This document shows positions 3,364 through 13,553 of a stretch of 62,190 bases of DNA, in pieces. A program made the position numbers and the translations under genes. Position 1 is the stretch's first letter. Each line of letters begins with the position of its first letter. Source of the stretch: a virus (Duplodnaviria; Caudoviricetes); the IMG/VR virus record IMGVR_UViG_3300031787_000118, positions 1 through 62,190 of that record; one strand, written 5' to 3'. Below the pieces are notes generated by a model. It ran no database searches. It was given only the letters and a program-made list of their open reading frames with translations, and had not been told where the DNA came from.

Positions 3364-3421
3364 TGAACCTCTCCACAAATATAATTCTTTTTTTGTTTTT
3401 CATAGAATTATAAGGAAAAAT

Positions 3422-3456
3422 TGTCAAAACTAAGGGGGGGTGTTGAGGGGAAGGAC
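3422..3456 (-). promoter_or_regulatory. 35-bp repeated early-region motif, copy 1 (candidate phage RNAP promoter) upstream of the tRNAs
   Basis: Plus strand TGTCAAAACTAAGGGGGGGTGTTGAGGGGAAGGAC aligns without gaps to four other intergenic copies. Confidence 0.65.
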
Positions 3457-3488
3457 TAATAAAAAATAAACTAAATCCTTTTACAGAT

Positions 3489-4637: not shown

Positions 4638-4723
4638 CTTTGTCCTGCTCCAGTCTTAATTTGTGTTTGAGAAGGTGCTTCTTGTCCTGTAGTGGTTTCT
4701 CCACCATTATTCTGAATATTCAT
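4634..4723 (-). CDS. 29-aa microprotein MNIQNNGGETTTGQEAPSQTQIKTGAGQR
   Basis: Fills the gap; its TGA overlaps the ATG of the next gene (ATGA). Below the ORF-track cutoff. Confidence 0.5.
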   Translation of the reverse strand: MNIQNNGGETTTGQEAPSQTQIKTGAGQR

Positions 4724-4735
4724 AGTTGTTTGAAA

Positions 4736-5011
4736 TTAAAAAGTGTTACGAAAAAATGAAATTACTTCAACCCATTTAGATTCTTCTCTTGTTGTAGAAA
4801 TATCATATCCTTGAAAATACACATGATGTTTTCCAAGTATTGTTTCAACTTTCACATTACTCACTAACAAGTTATGTTTAGGTTCAACTTCATCACTCAC
4901 CATTATTTTATTTGTATCTAAATAATAGTCATAATGTATTGTTTTACCTACCCATTCATTGTGTAAAGCTTCTTGAATTAATTGCTCTACATTATATTTC
5001 TTTTTTCCCAT
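4736..5011 (-). CDS. Hypothetical protein
   Basis: 91-aa ORF. Confidence 0.6.
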   Translation of the reverse strand: MGKKKYNVEQLIQEALHNEWVGKTIHYDYYLDTNKIMVSDEVEPKHNLLVSNVKVETILGKHHVYFQGYDISTTREESKWVEVISFFRNTF

Positions 5012-7394: not shown

Positions 7395-7709
7395 TTACTT
7401 TTTGTTTTTATAATAATGTTGAACATTTTCTTTTCTTGTTAACCATTCTAAATTTGAACTGTTATTATTGAGTTTATTCCCATCCATATGGTTAACTGTA
7501 TCTTTGTTTTGTAAATTTTCACAAAAAGCTTTAGCTACTAAGATGTGAATTTTTACTTTTTTAACTTTACCTTTAATACTAATGTTACAATATAAATATC
7601 CTCTTTTATTTATATTACATTTTAATATTTTACCTTTTCTGTTTTTAAATCTGCCATAATTAGATATTTCATAATTATTAGATTCTTCAATGTTTTTCCA
7701 CTTTTCCAT
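7395..7709 (-). CDS. NUMOD4 + HNH homing-endonuclease-like protein
   Basis: N-terminal MEKWKNI...YEISNYGR (NUMOD4), then IHILVAKAF...VNHMDGNKLNNNSSNLEWLTRKENVQH (HNH). Confidence 0.88.
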   Translation of the reverse strand: MEKWKNIEESNNYEISNYGRFKNRKGKILKCNINKRGYLYCNISIKGKVKKVKIHILVAKAFCENLQNKDTVNHMDGNKLNNNSSNLEWLTRKENVQHYYKNKK

Positions 7710-7729
7710 ATGATAAATTTATTTTTTTA

Positions 7730-8452
7730 GAACCCTCTCTTACAACTATCCCCAAAGGAAACGATTTCTCTGTCATTGTAAGAGTAGGGTCACGTGATTA
7801 TTTCAATGATTTCGTTCTATCAATATTTCAGATAGTGCAGTACTTTCAACTATACATAATCACTTGCTGAGAACTCATTTGTGTTGTAGGGCTACTTGGC
7901 TTTCCCTCTTACCTATAGATTTTTATTCCTTTCTCAAGAGAACAACACATTCCAACTTTCATTGGACATCTTTAATGAATTTTGCTTACTTAGCTTACAG
8001 TAGAACTTTAATCCACTAACATGTTAAGGAATTACACCTTATTGCTGTAAGCTTACTTCTGTTCATTCAGGAATCAATGTTTAGCCTGTTTGTTTATTTT
8101 AACTTATTGTTTGGTATGCTGAATAACCAAGAACTACGTTTTAATATTACATGATTTTAATAATTTGTATAACAATATCAACTATGTTTCCCTATAGAAA
8201 ACTACAATCAATATTATTAGATGTTTGGACTTTTGTTATTTAGTAAAATAAAGGGAATGTTTTTCATTGACATTCCCTTTAAGTTTGAGCTTAACACTCT
8301 TTAATTTTAGAATTCGAGTTTGCTAATGCTCTGAGATTGTGGATTTACATTTCCAAAGCAATAAGGAAAACACCTTTAGTTTGTTTTATTTCCATAACAT
8401 TATTACACTAATACACCATGTCAAACTAATACGATAACTGTAATAATTTAAT
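7730..8452 (-). ncRNA. Putative structured non-coding RNA cluster
   Basis: No ORF of 60 aa or more. Consecutive closed stems at 7732-7790, 7794-7863, 7880-7948 (pseudoknot potential) and about 7975-8066; lies directly downstream of motif copy 2. Confidence 0.5.
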
Positions 8453-8487
8453 TGTCCAAAATAAGTGGGGGTGGAGAGGGAATGGAT
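8453..8487 (-). promoter_or_regulatory. 35-bp repeated early-region motif, copy 2
   Basis: Plus strand TGTCCAAAATAAGTGGGGGTGGAGAGGGAATGGAT. Confidence 0.65.
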
Positions 8488-8494
8488 GAAAAGA

Positions 8495-8524
8495 AAATAT
8501 AAAAGGATTTCTCCTTTTATATTT
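8495..8524 (-). terminator. GAAA-loop hairpin
   Basis: Minus strand AAATATAAAAGGA-GAAA-TCCTTTTATATTT followed by a T-rich tract. Confidence 0.6.
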
Positions 8525-9026: not shown

Positions 9027-9055
9027 TTTTATAAATTAAAAATTGATAAAAATTG

Positions 9056-9164
9056 ACAAATGTCAATATGAAATAATACTTTACTCCCTTCCCTTATATA
9101 TTGGTAAAGGAGAGAGTCCAGAGAGAGGAAACCCCTGTAAAGTTTTTTTCATATTGACATTTGT
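9056..9164. repeat. 109-bp element bounded by a perfect 18-bp inverted repeat
   Basis: ACAAATGTCAATATGAAA (9056-9073) and its exact reverse complement (9147-9164), with a purine/pyrimidine-skewed interior. Confidence 0.8.
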
Positions 9165-9166
9165 GT

Positions 9167-9448
9167 TTAATAATCAAATTCAGTATCAAAAATATCAATT
9201 AAATATTGTTTAAAATCTTCATAAGATTTAAACTCATTCACATTTCCATCCCTTGTTACTGCAATAACTTTAATAAAATCTCCTACACTTGTAGGCCCTG
9301 ATTTTAATTGTTCATGAAATACAGTTACAAGAATATGATGTGGAAAATCTTTAAAACTTAATGCAACTGTATCCATTGCTTCAGTTTTATAAGTTTCATA
9401 AGAACACCATCCAATTTTAGGGAATTTGATTGATAATATATATTGCAT
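9167..9448 (-). CDS. Hypothetical protein
   Basis: 93-aa ORF. Confidence 0.6.
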   Translation of the reverse strand: MQYILSIKFPKIGWCSYETYKTEAMDTVALSFKDFPHHILVTVFHEQLKSGPTSVGDFIKVIAVTRDGNVNEFKSYEDFKQYLIDIFDTEFDY

Positions 9449-9503
9449 AATTTGTTTATATTTAAAAGTTTACAATAAGAGAGCTAATTAAAGCTCTCTT
9501 TTT

Positions 9504-9794
9504 TTAGTTTTCTCCGTAAGCATTATCACAATTAGAACATAACCATTTACAATATGTATTTAGTTCTGTTTTCTCTTCACTTTCACAAAAAGGGCAAGTT
9601 ATATCATTTTCATCAGTAACTATATCCCAACCTACATCTTCATTGTTATCAAGCCATTTTTCAAATGCTTCTTGTATTTGTTCTTCAATGGTGCCGTTGT
9701 CTTCATATAGTTTTACTTCAACTATTTCTTCAGTATAACCTGCATTACACCAAAAATTAACTTTGATAGTTTCAGGCATTTTTTCATTGCTCAT
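9504..9794 (-). CDS. Acidic protein with C-terminal Zn-ribbon
   Basis: CPFC...CSNC motifs; very acidic. Confidence 0.65.
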   Translation of the reverse strand: MSNEKMPETIKVNFWCNAGYTEEIVEVKLYEDNGTIEEQIQEAFEKWLDNNEDVGWDIVTDENDITCPFCESEEKTELNTYCKWLCSNCDNAYGEN

Positions 9795-9806
9795 AATTAT
9801 ATAGTT

Positions 9807-10007
9807 TTATTTGTTCCATTTCTTTTTATATCTTGTAATAAAGTCAATTGGAAACTTAGAACTCCAACCACAAGAACAAGTAAATTGTTCAATTTGTGGA
9901 CTCCAAGTAGTTCTTGGATTTCTATGTTTACAATTGTCATTACCACAATAAGGAGAGTAATTTTCTACTTCCATTAAGTTTTGTCTTACAATTGAATCTT
10001 CACTCAT
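9807..10007 (-). CDS. Small Cys-rich (Zn-finger-like) protein
   Basis: YSPYCGNDNC...FTCSCGW. Confidence 0.65.
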   Translation of the reverse strand: MSEDSIVRQNLMEVENYSPYCGNDNCKHRNPRTTWSPQIEQFTCSCGWSSKFPIDFITRYKKKWNK

Positions 10008-10022
10008 GTTTAAATAAATTTA

Positions 10023-10054
10023 AAAGAATAACTGTATTTCTACAGTTATTCTTT
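10023..10054 (-). terminator. GAAA-loop hairpin
   Basis: Minus strand AAAGAATAACTGTA-GAAA-TACAGTTATTCTTT (14-bp perfect stem). Confidence 0.65.
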
Positions 10055-10060
10055 GGTTTG

Positions 10061-10420
10061 TTATTTGGATATATTTAAAGTTGCATGTGGAAATGCAATG
10101 CAATCAACTAATAGTTTTTGTAACCAAGGAATGAATTGTTCTCTTGTTCCCCAACCATTAGATGCTGAAAATACATTGAATTTTTCAGGATGATTTTGCA
10201 AATTTTGTATTGCTTCAGTTAATGGAGCAATTAAAGCACCTGCTTTTGTATCATAATCCATATCCCATAAAATACCACAACCTGATTCTCTTGCCATATC
10301 TCTAAGGTTATGAGTAATGTTATGTTCAAATATGGTTTCATAAGTTCCTATTTCACAATGTCCACAATTAGGACATTGATGTGTTTGTACAGGCATTGTA
10401 CCATAAATATCTAAACTCAT
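10061..10420 (-). CDS. Conserved-looking hypothetical phage protein
   Basis: MSLDIY...CPNC...NITHNL..MA...LW...NGWG pattern, recalled from other phage early proteins. Confidence 0.7.
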   Translation of the reverse strand: MSLDIYGTMPVQTHQCPNCGHCEIGTYETIFEHNITHNLRDMARESGCGILWDMDYDTKAGALIAPLTEAIQNLQNHPEKFNVFSASNGWGTREQFIPWLQKLLVDCIAFPHATLNISK

Positions 10421-10482
10421 AGCTTTATTATTTAGTTAAATTAAAAAATAAAAGAGAATCCTTGTTAGGGATTCCCTTATGA

Positions 10483-10761
10483 TTAGTTGATAAATTCAAT
10501 TGAGCCATCATCAGTTCTGATAATATATTTTTTAACTCTATGGTAATTGTTTCCTGATATTTGACATCTACCATTTGTAAAAAATCTAAAAGTTTCCCAA
10601 TTACAATCTCCATCTGCATCAGGTTCAGTACTCCATGCACAAGTGAAAGATTCATCTTCTTGTGTTTTAGTAAATTTGTCAAAGTTTTTAGCAAGTTGAG
10701 ATTTAATTTCAACTGCTTTTGCTATTTGTTCTACTGTATAATTTACATTTGTTTGTAGCAT
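10483..10761 (-). CDS. Hypothetical protein
   Basis: 92-aa ORF with an ATG start; preferred over the overlapping frame 10428-10712. Confidence 0.6.
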   Translation of the reverse strand: MLQTNVNYTVEQIAKAVEIKSQLAKNFDKFTKTQEDESFTCAWSTEPDADGDCNWETFRFFTNGRCQISGNNYHRVKKYIIRTDDGSIEFIN

Positions 10762-10818
10762 GTCTTTAGGTTTTAAAAAATAAAGAAAAAAGAGAGAGTT
10801 GTTACACTCTCTCTGAAA

Positions 10819-11181
10819 TTAGTTTACAGTTGTTCCTTTAGGTATGAACACTTTGTATGAAACACTTGCATTGTGATTATTCACAATGAACTGTTTTCCT
10901 TGTGAGATAACAGTATTGTTTTCATTAACTACAGTTGCAATTGGTGTTGCAGTGTTAGCAACTTGTTGAGTAGCTACAGTGCCACCATTAGTGCTAACAT
11001 AGGTTTCAACAATGATTCTGCTACCTTTTGCTTCTACAACTTGTACTTTACCCTCTAACTTGAGGGTAACTGTAGGTGTTGCTACTACAGTTTTGTGAGT
11101 AGCAACAGTATTTTGTGCATAAGTTGACAAATGAAGACAAGTCAACAACATGATTAGGATAAGAGTGAGTACAGCTTTCAT
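10819..11181 (-). CDS. Secreted/periplasmic protein (signal peptide)
   Basis: MKAVLTLILIMLLTCLHLSTYA-Q signal peptide and a Thr/Val-rich beta body; first gene after motif copy 3. Confidence 0.7.
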   Translation of the reverse strand: MKAVLTLILIMLLTCLHLSTYAQNTVATHKTVVATPTVTLKLEGKVQVVEAKGSRIIVETYVSTNGGTVATQQVANTATPIATVVNENNTVISQGKQFIVNNHNASVSYKVFIPKGTTVN

Positions 11182-11211
11182 GATAAGTGAGTATTATAAG
11201 TTTGTAATAAA

Positions 11212-11246
11212 TGTCAAGACTAAGTTGGGGTGGATAGGTAAGGGAT
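11212..11246 (-). promoter_or_regulatory. 35-bp repeated early-region motif, copy 3
   Basis: Plus strand TGTCAAGACTAAGTTGGGGTGGATAGGTAAGGGAT. Confidence 0.65.
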
Positions 11247-11249
11247 AAA

Positions 11250-11610
11250 TAAAAAATAAATAATCAAGCTCCCTTTATTCGATGACTCGGCTGTGGATTT
11301 AAGTGTGTACAGCTTAGTACACTTGATTATTTAAAAAACTATTAACAGAGCATACATTATTTCATTAAGATAAAGTAGAGAATATAGTCTTCCAACTGAC
11401 ATCACTCACAGTAGCAATTTTCTTCTAAACAATTGTGCACCATTGCTTAGTTACTTCTTGTTGTACTGCATCAGTTTTCACAAACTGATTGTATCTTAAT
11501 TAGTATGTTGTTAATAGTTAACAATGCTTTTAAACCAAGTGCATTGTAAATTCGTCTTGTCATAATTATGCGCCTTCTTTCGGAAAGCAGGGTTTTATGA
11601 GTCTACCCTG
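11250..11610 (-). ncRNA. Putative multi-domain structured ncRNA (about 350 nt)
   Basis: ORF-free interval between motif copies 4 and 3. It has a 5' hairpin pair with pseudoknot potential, a multibranch domain 11338-11518 with a GTGA tetraloop, and a closed domain 11260-11330 followed by a T-rich tract. Confidence 0.55.
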
Positions 11611-11643
11611 TCAAAACTTAATGGGAGTGTGAAGGGAATGGAT
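11609..11643 (-). promoter_or_regulatory. 35-bp repeated early-region motif, copy 4
   Basis: Plus strand TGTCAAAACTTAATGGGAGTGTGAAGGGAATGGAT. Confidence 0.65.
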
Positions 11644-11672
11644 TAATAGAAATAAAAAAGTAAAATACTCTT

Positions 11673-11855
11673 TTATTTATCTAATTTAATAAAAGACATC
11701 CAAATGAATATTAGACCAAAAGAAATGCCTAAATACATTTGTATGAAGTCACCTATTTTTTGGTCAACATAAGTTTGTGGTATAAATGCCATGATTATAA
11801 AACTTATACCTACAATGAAAGGTATAAGTTTGAGCATGATGAATGATAGTTTCAT
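11673..11855 (-). CDS. Small two-TM membrane protein
   Basis: 60 aa with two hydrophobic helices. Confidence 0.6.
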   Translation of the reverse strand: MKLSFIMLKLIPFIVGISFIIMAFIPQTYVDQKIGDFIQMYLGISFGLIFIWMSFIKLDK

Positions 11856-11935
11856 AATAGTGTGAAATGTGATAGGTTAAATAAAAAGAAATACTATACC
11901 TTACGGGATATAGTATTTCAATGGTTTGTGATTTG

Positions 11936-12205
11936 TTAGAGTGTGGTTAAGGTTGTGAGTCCTGCACCTTCTGCTACATTGATAAGACATGCAGATTCCA
12001 TAATAGGATTGCCTTTCTTATCAAATTCACTACAGATGAATGAGAGATTACCTTTAACATCAATGTCTTGTTGACATTTGAGTGCGGTATCTTCATCGAC
12101 AATGACAAATAGTTTGTCTGTCTTTGGGTTTTTCACAACTTTAATTTCTGTCACACCAAAGTGTGCTTTGACCTGAGCCACTGAGAAGAATTTTACATCA
12201 GCCAT
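11936..12205 (-). CDS. Small early protein resembling a conserved crAss-like family
   Basis: IKVVKNPKTDKLF motif recalled from crAss-like early proteins; first gene after motif copy 5. Confidence 0.7.
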   Translation of the reverse strand: MADVKFFSVAQVKAHFGVTEIKVVKNPKTDKLFVIVDEDTALKCQQDIDVKGNLSFICSEFDKKGNPIMESACLINVAEGAGLTTLTTL

Positions 12206-12240
12206 GATAGTAGAGTATTAAATGGTTTAAATTAATTTAT

Positions 12241-12275
12241 TGTCAAAACTAAAGGGAAGTGGAAAGGGAAAGGAT
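12241..12275 (-). promoter_or_regulatory. 35-bp repeated early-region motif, copy 5
   Basis: Plus strand TGTCAAAACTAAAGGGAAGTGGAAAGGGAAAGGAT. Confidence 0.65.
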
Positions 12276-12364
12276 ATTTATGTGCCAAGAAAAGAAAACA
12301 TTGGAGCAAAGGTGGGGGTATGAAAATCAAATTAGAAAAGGGTGGGGTTTTATTAGAGGGGAAT

Positions 12365-12493
12365 CACACATTAACTATTTCTACAACTTCTAAAAAATTT
12401 TATAAAAAATCCACACATCAACTATTCACATAACTCCTAAAAATTTTATAAAAAATAAAACACACTATCTCCTAAAATTATTTTCAAAAAAAT
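12365..12493 (+). repeat. Imperfect tandem direct repeats (about 46 bp x2 plus a shorter copy) at the strand switch
   Basis: CACACATTAACTATT...CTAAAAAATTTTATAAAAAAT / CACACATCAACTATT...CTAAAAATTTTATAAAAAAT / CACACTATCTCCTAAAATTATTTTCAAAAAAAT. Confidence 0.7.
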
Positions 12494-12539
12494 CTGAACC
12501 TTTTTTCAGTTTAATTTCTTACTTTGTTATTACTTTTTT

Positions 12540-12547
12540 TATCTTTG
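12540..12547 (+). promoter_or_regulatory. Bacteroidota -7 promoter element (TAnnTTTG)
   Basis: TATCTTTG 14 nt before the first plus-strand ATG. The upstream TTTG at 12523 is closer than usual spacing. Confidence 0.45.
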
Positions 12548-12561
12548 TAAAAATTATAATC

Positions 12562-12924
12562 ATGAAACCATTAAGCAAGAAATTAACACTTGAGCCAAAT
12601 CAGTATTATATTGTGCATTTATCTATTGTTAATGCACTTATCCCTGTTAAACTAACACCTAAAGAGATAGAGGTGTTAGCTTGTTTTATGTCACTTAAAG
12701 GTGACATAGCTAAAGATAGATTTGGAGCTACTGCAAGAAAGTTTGTAAAACAAACTCTTAACTTATCTGATGGTGGATTAGGAAACTATCTTAAAAGTTT
12801 AAAAGAAAAGAAGTTTATCTCTGATGCAAATGAGATACTTTCTGCATTAATGCCAAGTGAAGATAAACAAGAATATTTAATTCAACTAATAAACAAAAAA
12901 GATGGCAAGGAATCCATTAGTTGA
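12562..12924 (+). CDS. Winged-HTH DNA-binding protein
   Basis: LTPKEIEVL...VKQTLNLSDGGLGNYLKSLKEKKFI pattern. Confidence 0.7.
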   Translation: MKPLSKKLTLEPNQYYIVHLSIVNALIPVKLTPKEIEVLACFMSLKGDIAKDRFGATARKFVKQTLNLSDGGLGNYLKSLKEKKFISDANEILSALMPSEDKQEYLIQLINKKDGKESIS

Positions 12925-13261
12925 AAGATACTATAGTAAGGTTAAGGATAAATATCCACAACTAAATGAATCTGAATTTCATGATGCTATTAATTCTACT
13001 TTTAGGTATTTTAAAAAGAAGATGGGAAGTGAAGATTTACCTGATGTTAGATTAAAAGGATTTGGTAGTTTTCAGATATTTGCAAAACCTGTACTTTCAG
13101 GTATAAGAAGATTAGAGGAAAAGATTAGCACTTATAGACATTTTAATCACCCTGTTGAAAATTATGAATGTTTTCAACAATTACAAAACTTAAAAAATTA
13201 TGTTGAAAAGAATCCCTTATTATTTGATGCAGCTTATAAGAGGAGAAAGAAAGTGGATTGA
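12902..13261 (+). CDS. HU/IHF-like DNA-binding protein
   Basis: DVRLKGFGSF motif after two helices. Confidence 0.65.
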   Translation: MARNPLVERYYSKVKDKYPQLNESEFHDAINSTFRYFKKKMGSEDLPDVRLKGFGSFQIFAKPVLSGIRRLEEKISTYRHFNHPVENYECFQQLQNLKNYVEKNPLLFDAAYKRRKKVD

Positions 13262-13553
13262 TGTTTGGTATTTCTTTCAAGGTCATTACAGGGAGAAGTT
13301 GTATTATTCAAGATGGAAGTTCTTAATGAGAAAACATATCAAGGAACAATTTGAAATGAGATTAGAGTTAATGGATAGAGAGTGTTACAACAATGGACAA
13401 TGTAAGATTTGTGGTTGTGATATTCCTGCACTTACCCTTTCTAATAAATCTTGTGAAGGTGAATGTTATCCTGCATTTCATAATAGAAAAGATTGGAAAC
13501 AAATAAGAGAACATTGGGTTGATATTAAAAATGAAATCAATAAAAACAAATAA
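13200..13553 (+). CDS. Cys-rich (Zn-binding) hypothetical protein
   Basis: CYNNGQCKICGC...CEGECYP; start uncertain. Confidence 0.65.
   Translation: MLKRIPYYLMQLIRGERKWIDVWYFFQGHYREKLYYSRWKFLMRKHIKEQFEMRLELMDRECYNNGQCKICGCDIPALTLSNKSCEGECYPAFHNRKDWKQIREHWVDIKNEINKNK

Follow-up and report, generated by a model that had tools for sequence, protein, structure and literature searches.

A probable new structured RNA gene in a freshwater crAss-like phage

Introduction

Few known phages are as abundant as the crAss-like phages, whose arms of small genes are rich in unexplained non-coding sequence. The stretch considered here is a 62,190-bp virus record from IMG/VR (IMGVR_UViG_3300031787_000118; the whole record is called the window below). 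Judged by its genome layout, it comes from an uncultured freshwater phage of this kind, and positions 11250-11610 of its small-gene arm raise the question of what such a phage would do with a transcription unit that encodes no protein. The initial annotation took this segment, on the minus strand, for a stand-alone unit without an open reading frame (ORF), with a promoter of its own, specifying a novel structured RNA of ~350 nt. The results bear this out: there is a promoter motif upstream, RNA-library contigs from four of four runs lie on the unit, relatives show compensatory changes, and Rfam has no match. Very probably the unit is a genuine gene for a new, highly structured phage RNA that is non-coding and transcribed independently. 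It also makes a compact case: its ends can probably be placed, a promoter motif precedes it, covariation supports the fold, and RNA from the environment attests to it. The function proposed for it below is put forward with much more reserve.

Transcription of the unit

A run search with the 4-kb stretch 9500-13500 gave 19 sequencing runs, four of them marked as RNA; these are freshwater metatranscriptomes from four studies, possibly of one campaign. Each of the four contains 0.06-0.07 of the sampled words of the stretch, and DNA runs X1-X4 contain 0.97-1.00 of the same words; the DNA runs containing the stretch are labelled as freshwater or "fungus" metagenomes. All four RNA runs have contigs here, six in total, which match as whole records, with no mismatches and no loose ends, and only on 11273-11601 (Table 1). 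No contig from the four runs falls on the remaining ~3.7 kb of the stretch, which is no proof that the flanks are silent. At the 5' side the contigs reach 11598-11601, 6-9 nt downstream of the predicted start, and at the 3' side 11273-11293, inside the domain that precedes the T-tract and ~20-40 nt short of the tract itself; stops shared by RNA contigs across studies, at points where the DNA continues, are a weak hint of true ends. From a start near 11607 to the T-tract near 11250, the RNA is about 330-350 nt long.

The start is predicted from a motif (repeat family D1) that occurs five times in the window, always on the minus strand, and of which copy 4 stands ahead of the RNA; aligned, the copies read aTCCnTTCCCTnnnCACnCCCnnTTAGTTTTGACA. 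In a study of Flavobacterium psychrophilum (PMC9723704), the sigma-A −7 box TAnnTTTG is placed at −12 to −5. The 3' part of D1 matches this box perfectly in copies 1 and 5 and with one mismatch in copy 4, where the corresponding sequence is AAGTTTTG at 11612-11619; fitted to copy 4, the Flavobacterium rule gives a start site at ~11607. Since the 3' part of D1 fits the −7 box of Flavobacteria, TTGACA is not a −35 box here. The C-rich block upstream in D1 differs from the normal −33 element and may depend on a phage factor. Two of the five copies have an ORF downstream, starting 30-35 nt after the motif. The other three have no ORF of at least 35 amino acids (aa) beginning within 200 nt and stand ahead of non-coding units: a tRNA-Arg/tRNA-Leu pair, the present RNA, and 740 nt without ORFs.

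Two proposals of the initial annotation fare less well at this end of the unit. It had called the RNA "early", and a −7 box of the host sigma-A type does not support this, host polymerase being, we infer, as likely as a virion polymerase to transcribe it. It had also described a first hairpin, CAGGGT...ACCCTG (11588-11610), with a pseudoknot formed by its loop. The 5' arm of this hairpin (11605-11610) is at the predicted start or ahead of it, and the contigs begin at 11598-11601, so both features probably fall outside the RNA; they are conserved in no relative.

Predicted fold

On the minus strand, 11250-11612 has a minimum free energy (MFE) of −86.9 kcal/mol, against −68.7 ± 5.2 kcal/mol for 100 dinucleotide shuffles (z −3.50), none of which folds as well. 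For a 190-nt core the z score is −4.40, and the centroid structure is identical to the MFE structure, which has a frequency of 0.10; the fold is thus well defined. It is the multibranch domain outlined in the initial annotation, helix for helix: MFE and centroid folds are closed by ACTATTAACA/TGTTAATAGT, with TTAAGATA/TATCTTAA inside, and include the hairpin ATCAGTTT-GTGA-AAACTGAT and the pairing CTAAGCAAT/ATTGTTTAG. In the terms used from here on, a clamp of two helices (P1 and P2) leads by way of P3 into a four-way junction with three arms (P4-P6), as listed in Table 1. For the GUGCAC apical loop of P5 the predicted unpaired probability is 0.93-0.94, and a loop-loop duplex between two such RNAs is predicted at −10.7 kcal/mol.

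Outside the core, both leader hairpins named in the initial annotation, GCTTTC-CGAAA-GAAGGC (11572-11588) and ACAATGC...GCATTGT (11521-11547), are present in the MFE fold. So is the domain downstream (11250-11333), in which a long-range stem (11257-11333) has AAUAAUCA/UGAUUAUU as its closing helix and gives way to a T-tract at 11250-11256; the next promoter motif, copy 3, begins at 11260.

Homologues and covariation

With the terminase as anchor, 66 related loci were found; the neighbouring 89-aa and 120-aa proteins led to no related loci in viral contigs. When the gap that holds the RNA was compared with the terminase loci by blastn, one piece only proved conserved, 11334-11516, at 93.5% over 184 nt in four loci, and both of its ends also match in two further loci. 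Nothing in the first 20 kb is better conserved between the window and the related locus L026 than this core (93.5% over 184 nt): the six other high-scoring segment pairs of at least 60 nt, all of them coding and the terminase included, are 68.3-80.6% identical, and there is no other alignment between about 2.9 and 12.3 kb, a variable arm of ~9 kb. Only the multibranch domain is conserved, the leader and the downstream domain being unrelated in relatives. L026 has a different leader, and downstream a clean stem with a T-run terminator, followed by the next promoter; the core of L038 is identical to that of L026, yet its downstream flank differs. The unit is thus laid out as a cassette, with a promoter motif upstream, a T-tract downstream, and flanks that are unrelated between versions.

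Pattern scans and a model (R1) brought the versions to a total of 11 contigs, all from one freshwater clade: the window type (one contig), the L026 type (five viral contigs with identical cores), the L032 type (three viral contigs and one metagenome contig), and an 82-nt miniature (L022). The scans covered linker gaps of 10-40, 41-71, 72-102, and about 115-155 nt in viral contigs, 115-145 only in metagenome contigs, and 118-148 only in genome contigs; one pattern, run over the genomes of 185,579 species, gave no host-genome copy. The family is a narrow one, then, and new to Rfam. In all versions the RNA is among the first units of the leftward arm, and there is one copy per genome, which gives no support to the "RNA array" suggested in the initial annotation.

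All that the L032 and window types have in common is AACAACAUACUA and GAAAUAAUGUAUGCUCUGUUAAU at the ends and a handful of loop nucleotides, and MFE folds computed independently for the L032 type and for the window/L026 type give the same architecture. In the L032 type, P1 (10-11 bp) is separated from P2 (CAUAC/GUAUG) by a bulged A opposite CUC; beyond an internal loop, P3 leads into a four-way junction. The three arms there are a GNRA-capped hairpin, a long arm whose internal loops are rich in purines, and one further hairpin. The RNAalifold consensus of the three distinct sequences has 55 pairs, 18 of them with compensatory changes, and 95.1% of its cells are paired. In six slid controls, with the 3' partners shifted by 1-3 columns, 33-46% of the cells are paired and zero to three pairs are compensatory; none of 500 shuffles reached the observed measures. 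With so few sequences, and with shuffle tests inflated by related rows, more weight belongs to the slid controls and to the folds computed independently. Some ten G-U cells of the consensus would be C-A on the plus strand. They support an RNA read from the minus strand, as the initial annotation had argued from its G-U pairs.

Pair by pair, six of the eight stem pairs of P4 covary, and its GNRA cap is kept in all three large versions. In P1 four of 11 pairs are compensatory, the outer ones changing between versions but remaining complementary. Read by eye, the alignment of the window and L026 cores, which have ~13 differences, shows three double compensatory pairs, one U-A to G-U change, two wobble-compatible single changes, and three to four changes in linkers, with no pair broken. 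Among the large versions there is no variation in P2, in the inner 6 bp of P1, in the bulge, or in the 3' linker; the apical loop (G)GUGCACA is likewise identical in all three, and the 9-bp stem below it differs between the window/L026 and L032 types. In the L022 miniature, P1 is kept as 12 bp of other sequence and P2 with one nucleotide inserted; AAAUAAU and GCUCUG are kept as well, and the interior is only a 5-bp hairpin; R1 scores it at 24.3 bits, with E 0.009 in 707 kb and 0.0002 in a small search.

Several observations count against an RNA gene of this description, or against parts of it. Three distinct large sequences and one miniature are too few for formal covariation statistics (R-scape), and related rows may beat shuffles even without structure. 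The plus strand of 11250-11612 folds nearly equally well (z −3.17). The contigs reveal neither the strand of the RNA, its true ends, its level nor its timing; their depths are low (2.8-6.7), and DNA may be present in RNA libraries. Only a minority of relatives have the family: eight of 67 sources have a match at E ≤ 0.01, and R1 matches nothing in the whole records of four more distant relatives (G003-G006; completeness 98-100% for three). It also gives no match in FpV4 and phi14:2, either over the entire records or over their early regions with filters off. Its absence from most relatives makes the RNA dispensable for such phages, and the miniature, which has no GUGCAC arm, makes dimerisation inessential to the family.

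Table 1. Positions of the RNA, its parts, the RNA-library contigs that match it, and the promoter motif copies in the window
Feature	Position	Strand	Remarks
Promoter motif copies 1-5	3416-3470, 8447-8501, 11206-11260, 11603-11657, 12235-12289	minus (all)	C-rich block and Flavobacteria-type −7 box
Promoter motif copy 4 of 5	11603-11657	minus	C-rich block, then TAAGTTTTGACA; repeat family D1
Leader, ~80 nt	11521-11600	minus	Two local hairpins, 11572-11588 and 11521-11547; not conserved in relatives
Conserved core, 183 nt	11337-11519	minus	Clamp, P3, and four-way junction with three arms
Clamp P1	11509-11519 with 11337-11347	minus	Followed by bulged A opposite CUC
Clamp P2, CAUAC/GUAUG, 5 bp	11503-11507 with 11351-11355	minus	Followed by internal loop
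P3	11492-11500 with 11364-11372	minus	Leads into four-way junction
P4 hairpin	11470-11489	minus	GNRA tetraloop: GUGA (window and L026 types), GUAA (L032 type)
P5 long arm	11409-11469	minus	Purine-rich internal loops; apical loop with GUGCAC at 11435-11440
P6 irregular hairpin	11378-11407	minus	Least conserved arm
U-tract and downstream domain	11250-11336	minus	U-tract 11327-11336 directly after P1; probable terminator region
Minimum transcript extent	11273-11601	minus (from promoter, T-tract, and G-U pairs)	RNA-library contigs
X11 contig	11273-11598		
X12 contigs	11273-11453 and 11435-11599		
X14 contig	11293-11601		
X17 contigs	11288-11448 and 11451-11601		

Searches for known families and for coding sequence

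The initial annotation had not recognised a family for this RNA, and none was found. Rfam 15 (4227 models), run over the whole window at gathering scores, finds two tRNAs only; at E ≤ 10, 11000-11900 has six matches of 15-19 bits, none overlapping 11250-11610, and the L032 homologue region has one chance match. A blastn search of 11150-11700 against 50,697 phage records gave no match. A literature search on structured RNAs of Crassvirales and crAss-like phages turned up neither an account of this RNA nor later work on the phi14:2 RNAs discussed below. A tRNA identity was rejected, as ARAGORN finds nothing here with introns allowed or not, and so was 6S RNA, the fold being a four-way junction with no Rfam match. 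A miniature inverted-repeat transposon was rejected on account of the single copy per record and of outer closing pairs that change yet stay complementary.

That the unit encodes no protein also holds. The longest ORF in the gap is of 30 aa (11471-11563, minus strand); it has no homologous ORF in the three other versions and no PHROG match, and was rejected as a gene. Also rejected was a tiny frame that begins within the 3' strand of P2; the 1-nt insertion of L022 puts it out of frame. Among ORFs of at least 12 aa, listed for four versions, none is common to all four, and the longest (30, 47, 27, and 13 aa) are unrelated; the window and L026 share a few frames of 12-18 aa, inside the 93%-identical core.

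A number of other candidate loci from the pattern scans were put down to chance. L077-L083 (seven loci, three distinct sequences), L095, and L096 have no closing-helix fold, and L096, with an R1 score of 17.8 bits, is contained in an ORF of 310 aa that runs on the opposite strand. L099 has no closing helix by eye, and its 3' motif is the leader and first 6 nt of a tRNA-like sequence; together with L077, L078, L080, L095, L097, and L098 it gives no R1 match at E ≤ 1.

Comparison with known RNAs

The nearest precedent is in the crAss-like Cellulophaga phage phi14:2, the one cultured model, in which two long intergenic regions, at the g004-g005 and g005-g006 junctions, are transcribed early and above most genes; in that report, the functions of these RNAs "remain to be determined", and no upstream motif common to the early transcripts is given (Drobysheva et al., bioRxiv 10.1101/2020.03.07.982082). 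The likeness is in the setting: crAss-like phages of Flavobacteriia-type hosts, with ORF-free segments of the small-gene arm present as RNA. There is no homology, however (the best R1 score in the first 9 kb of phi14:2, with filters off, is 12.8 bits, E 0.12). The gap is about 1.7 kb in phi14:2 and 0.35 kb here, and a repeated promoter motif stands ahead of the window RNA.

Among better known phage RNAs, the phi29-type pRNA is ~120-170 nt long, with its 5' and 3' ends in a long helix that has functional bulges, a multi-way junction, and loops that make RNA-RNA contacts; its structure is conserved with little sequence conservation. The present RNA resembles it in paired ends, bulges, a multi-way junction, and conservation of structure over sequence, but it has no Rfam match and a single palindromic loop in place of two complementary loops, and it belongs to a phage whose packaging enzyme is a large terminase (phrog_6681), where pRNA serves a pRNA-dependent packaging motor. 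GOLLD and ROOL are RNAs of phages and prophages, about 600-800 nt long and often near tRNAs, which form multimers by RNA-RNA contacts and are represented in Rfam. They are likewise phage-borne and often beside tRNA genes; they are also 3-4 times larger, and their Rfam models are unmatched here at gathering scores or at E ≤ 10.

Two further comparisons concern parts of the fold. Retroviral dimerisation-initiation hairpins carry six self-complementary, purine-flanked bases in an apical loop of 7-8 nt on a stable stem; the GUGCAC loop has only this motif logic in common with them, with no homology, and dimerisation here is a prediction. Decoys of the Y RNA and 6S RNA type are abundant and stable. 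In Y RNA the paired ends form a conserved bulged handle for protein and the distal module is variable, much as the present RNA has a conserved bulged end helix and a variable distal module; 6S RNA is a rod with a central bubble, and its Flavobacteria form is in Rfam. In a comparison of 21 small-arm ORFs with Pfam, no gene for a Ro-type or other RNA-binding protein was seen.

Possible functions

The initial annotation had offered an anti-defence decoy, a protein sponge or a ribozyme as conjectures. The reading preferred here is that the RNA is a protein-binding scaffold or decoy, read through its clamp. It is suggested by the invariant bulged clamp, the exchangeable interior, the single copy, a strong-looking promoter shared with tRNAs, and the accumulation of the RNA. 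Transcription probably starts near 11607, from a phage promoter motif also found ahead of tRNA genes. The invariant clamp would be the functional handle, recognised by a host or phage protein at the asymmetric bulge and loop that flank the invariant P2 (5 bp), and the RNA, if abundant, would titrate or reposition that protein; the interior arms would be exchangeable cargo. In the large versions the purine-flanked, self-complementary GUGCAC loop could kiss that of a second molecule, giving a dimer in which the binding platform is doubled, and the cassette, with its own promoter and terminator, would move as a unit in the hypervariable small-gene arm. Taken as a whole, RNA gene and clamp mechanism together, this explanation has a little less than an even chance of being right; the mechanism on its own is tentative, and somewhat less probable still.

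Self-association without any protein, with dimers or oligomers held together by the palindromic loop and GNRA contacts, would account for a self-complementary loop that is invariant in all three large versions over a replaced stem, as well as for the GNRA caps and purine-rich internal loops, and it would fit the tRNA-like gene that directly follows the L032 version, GOLLD and ROOL being found near tRNAs. The miniature does without the loop, however, and the RNA is ~3-4 times smaller than GOLLD or ROOL, with no Rfam match, so that an assembly of RNA alone is judged unlikely. The same loop, along with GAAAUAAU, could instead pair in trans with host or phage transcripts and so govern how these are translated or how stable they are. 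The conserved segments of the RNA are predicted to be single-stranded (0.81-0.99), and like phage small RNAs it has a promoter and a terminator to itself; but these segments are just 6-8 nt long, GTGCAC is not avoided in the window (four sites, with 3.8 expected) and was noticed at no gene start, and a covarying four-way junction of 183 nt exceeds what seed pairing needs. A base-pairing regulator is therefore quite unlikely. A ribozyme or self-processing RNA of a new class would suit the compact multi-helix junction, the invariant internal-loop nucleotides beside P2, and a GNRA loop able to dock. No known ribozyme family is matched in the 900-nt search even at E ≤ 10, the X11 and X14 contigs span the unit unbroken, hence most molecules are uncut, and the unit stands alone, with no obvious substrate or flanking genes to process; this makes a ribozyme or self-processing RNA very improbable.

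A more modest role would be in RNA stability or processing, with the clamp as an element for a double-strand nuclease (RNase III type) or one that blocks exonucleases, or the RNA could be a stable by-product with no function. With ~25 bp and its internal loops, the stacked P1-P2-P3 helix is reminiscent of the RNase III sites of phages, terminator-like hairpins are dense in this arm (13, with 1.7 expected), and other "clamped" modules occur in the arms of relatives. Against this, the unit has no coding message to stabilise or release, and a core conserved above the level of the terminase, with invariant loops, argues for a function of the RNA itself; the idea has little probability. At the DNA level, the locus might be an origin, a protein-binding inverted repeat, or a miniature transposon that is passively transcribed, or it might be the mRNA of a small protein. 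Conserved terminal inverted sequences around a swapped interior would suit a DNA element, as would a place 0.7-1.2 kb from the point where the arms diverge and the cumulative GC skew turns, and a 30-aa ORF is present. In outer P1, however, pairs vary but stay complementary (four of 11 compensatory), unlike transposon flanks; the ~10 G-U cells fit a minus-strand RNA only, there is one copy per genome, and no ORF is conserved. Explanations of this kind are the least probable of all.

The scaffold or decoy reading could be carried further, to a new class of phage RNAs with "clamped cargo". The bulged helix would then act as a universal handle by which a host factor is bound, such as a Flavobacteriia protein for defence or RNA surveillance, and the RNA would be a self-assembling anti-host decoy whose interchangeable interiors, in this case an arm that dimerises by kissing loops, tune its valency. 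This extension is speculative and, as it stands, unlikely to be correct; if true, its logic may account for many unexplained folded RNAs in crAss-like small-gene arms. Natural "deletion variants", that is the 82-nt clamp-only form and the two interiors, indicate which part matters, and a 183-nt construct makes the role of such phage RNAs testable in vitro.

Genomic setting and other elements of the small-gene arm

The window has a completeness of ~66% (CheckV). Its leftward arm (below ~12.4 kb) carries small genes and two tRNAs, and its rightward arm an endolysin, the large terminase (phrog_6681, E 1.9e-169), and structural genes, with a terminal ORF that exceeds 5,556 aa. With its counterparts in Flavobacterium psychrophilum phages FpV4 and Fpv3 the terminase shares 51% identity, and it matches 159 records, crAss-like Bacteroides and Cellulophaga phages among them. 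The RNA lies in a gap of 491 nt between an ORF for a 60-aa membrane protein (11673-11855) and one of 120 aa (10819-11181).

Between 7000 and 12600 of the window there are 13 terminator-like hairpins (1.7 ± 1.3 in shuffles), and almost every small gene resembles a separate cassette. In L026, 5541-5813 and 7068-7349 encode two paralogues of the 89-aa protein at the head of the arm (phrog_15744 family in the window), the similarity being judged by eye from translations. One of them directly follows the RNA cassette, which points to shuffling of cassettes in the small-gene arm.

The ORF-free segment after promoter copy 2 (7710-8446, minus strand) has ~740 nt without a minus-strand ORF of at least 40 aa and a folding z score of −2.32; it contains internal terminator-like hairpins and has no Rfam match at gathering scores. 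The gene directly after it (7395-7709) encodes a homing endonuclease with HNH and NUMOD4 domains (Pfam E 3e-11 and 7e-9). The 740-nt segment is a candidate for a second non-coding RNA unit, or else for an intron-like remnant.

Directly 3' of the L032-type RNA, at 4673-4893 of that record (minus strand), is a tRNA-like gene whose acceptor, D, and T arms are good; its variable arm is long, and its anticodon loop has a 128-nt insertion. It is found only by ARAGORN with introns allowed, and by Rfam it is neither a tRNA nor a group I intron. Another tRNA-like gene of the same record (1227-1307), with an 8-nt insertion, has the anticodon tta, which would read UAA.

Other folded elements occur in these arms. 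In the window, a 109-nt element at 9056-9164 (minus strand) has a perfect closing helix of at least 10 bp and an MFE of −41.7 kcal/mol; the gap around it, 9027-9503, folds at z −5.21 and may also contain a small ORF. Relatives without the RNA family have other long-range "clamped" elements with T-tracts in the same arm, among them one of 120 nt (L010 4710-4829 and L012 755-874) and one of 213 nt (L043 2890-3102 and L013 1310-1522; MFE −71.5 and −66.4 kcal/mol), the clamp of the latter differing from one locus to the other by a single G-U change.

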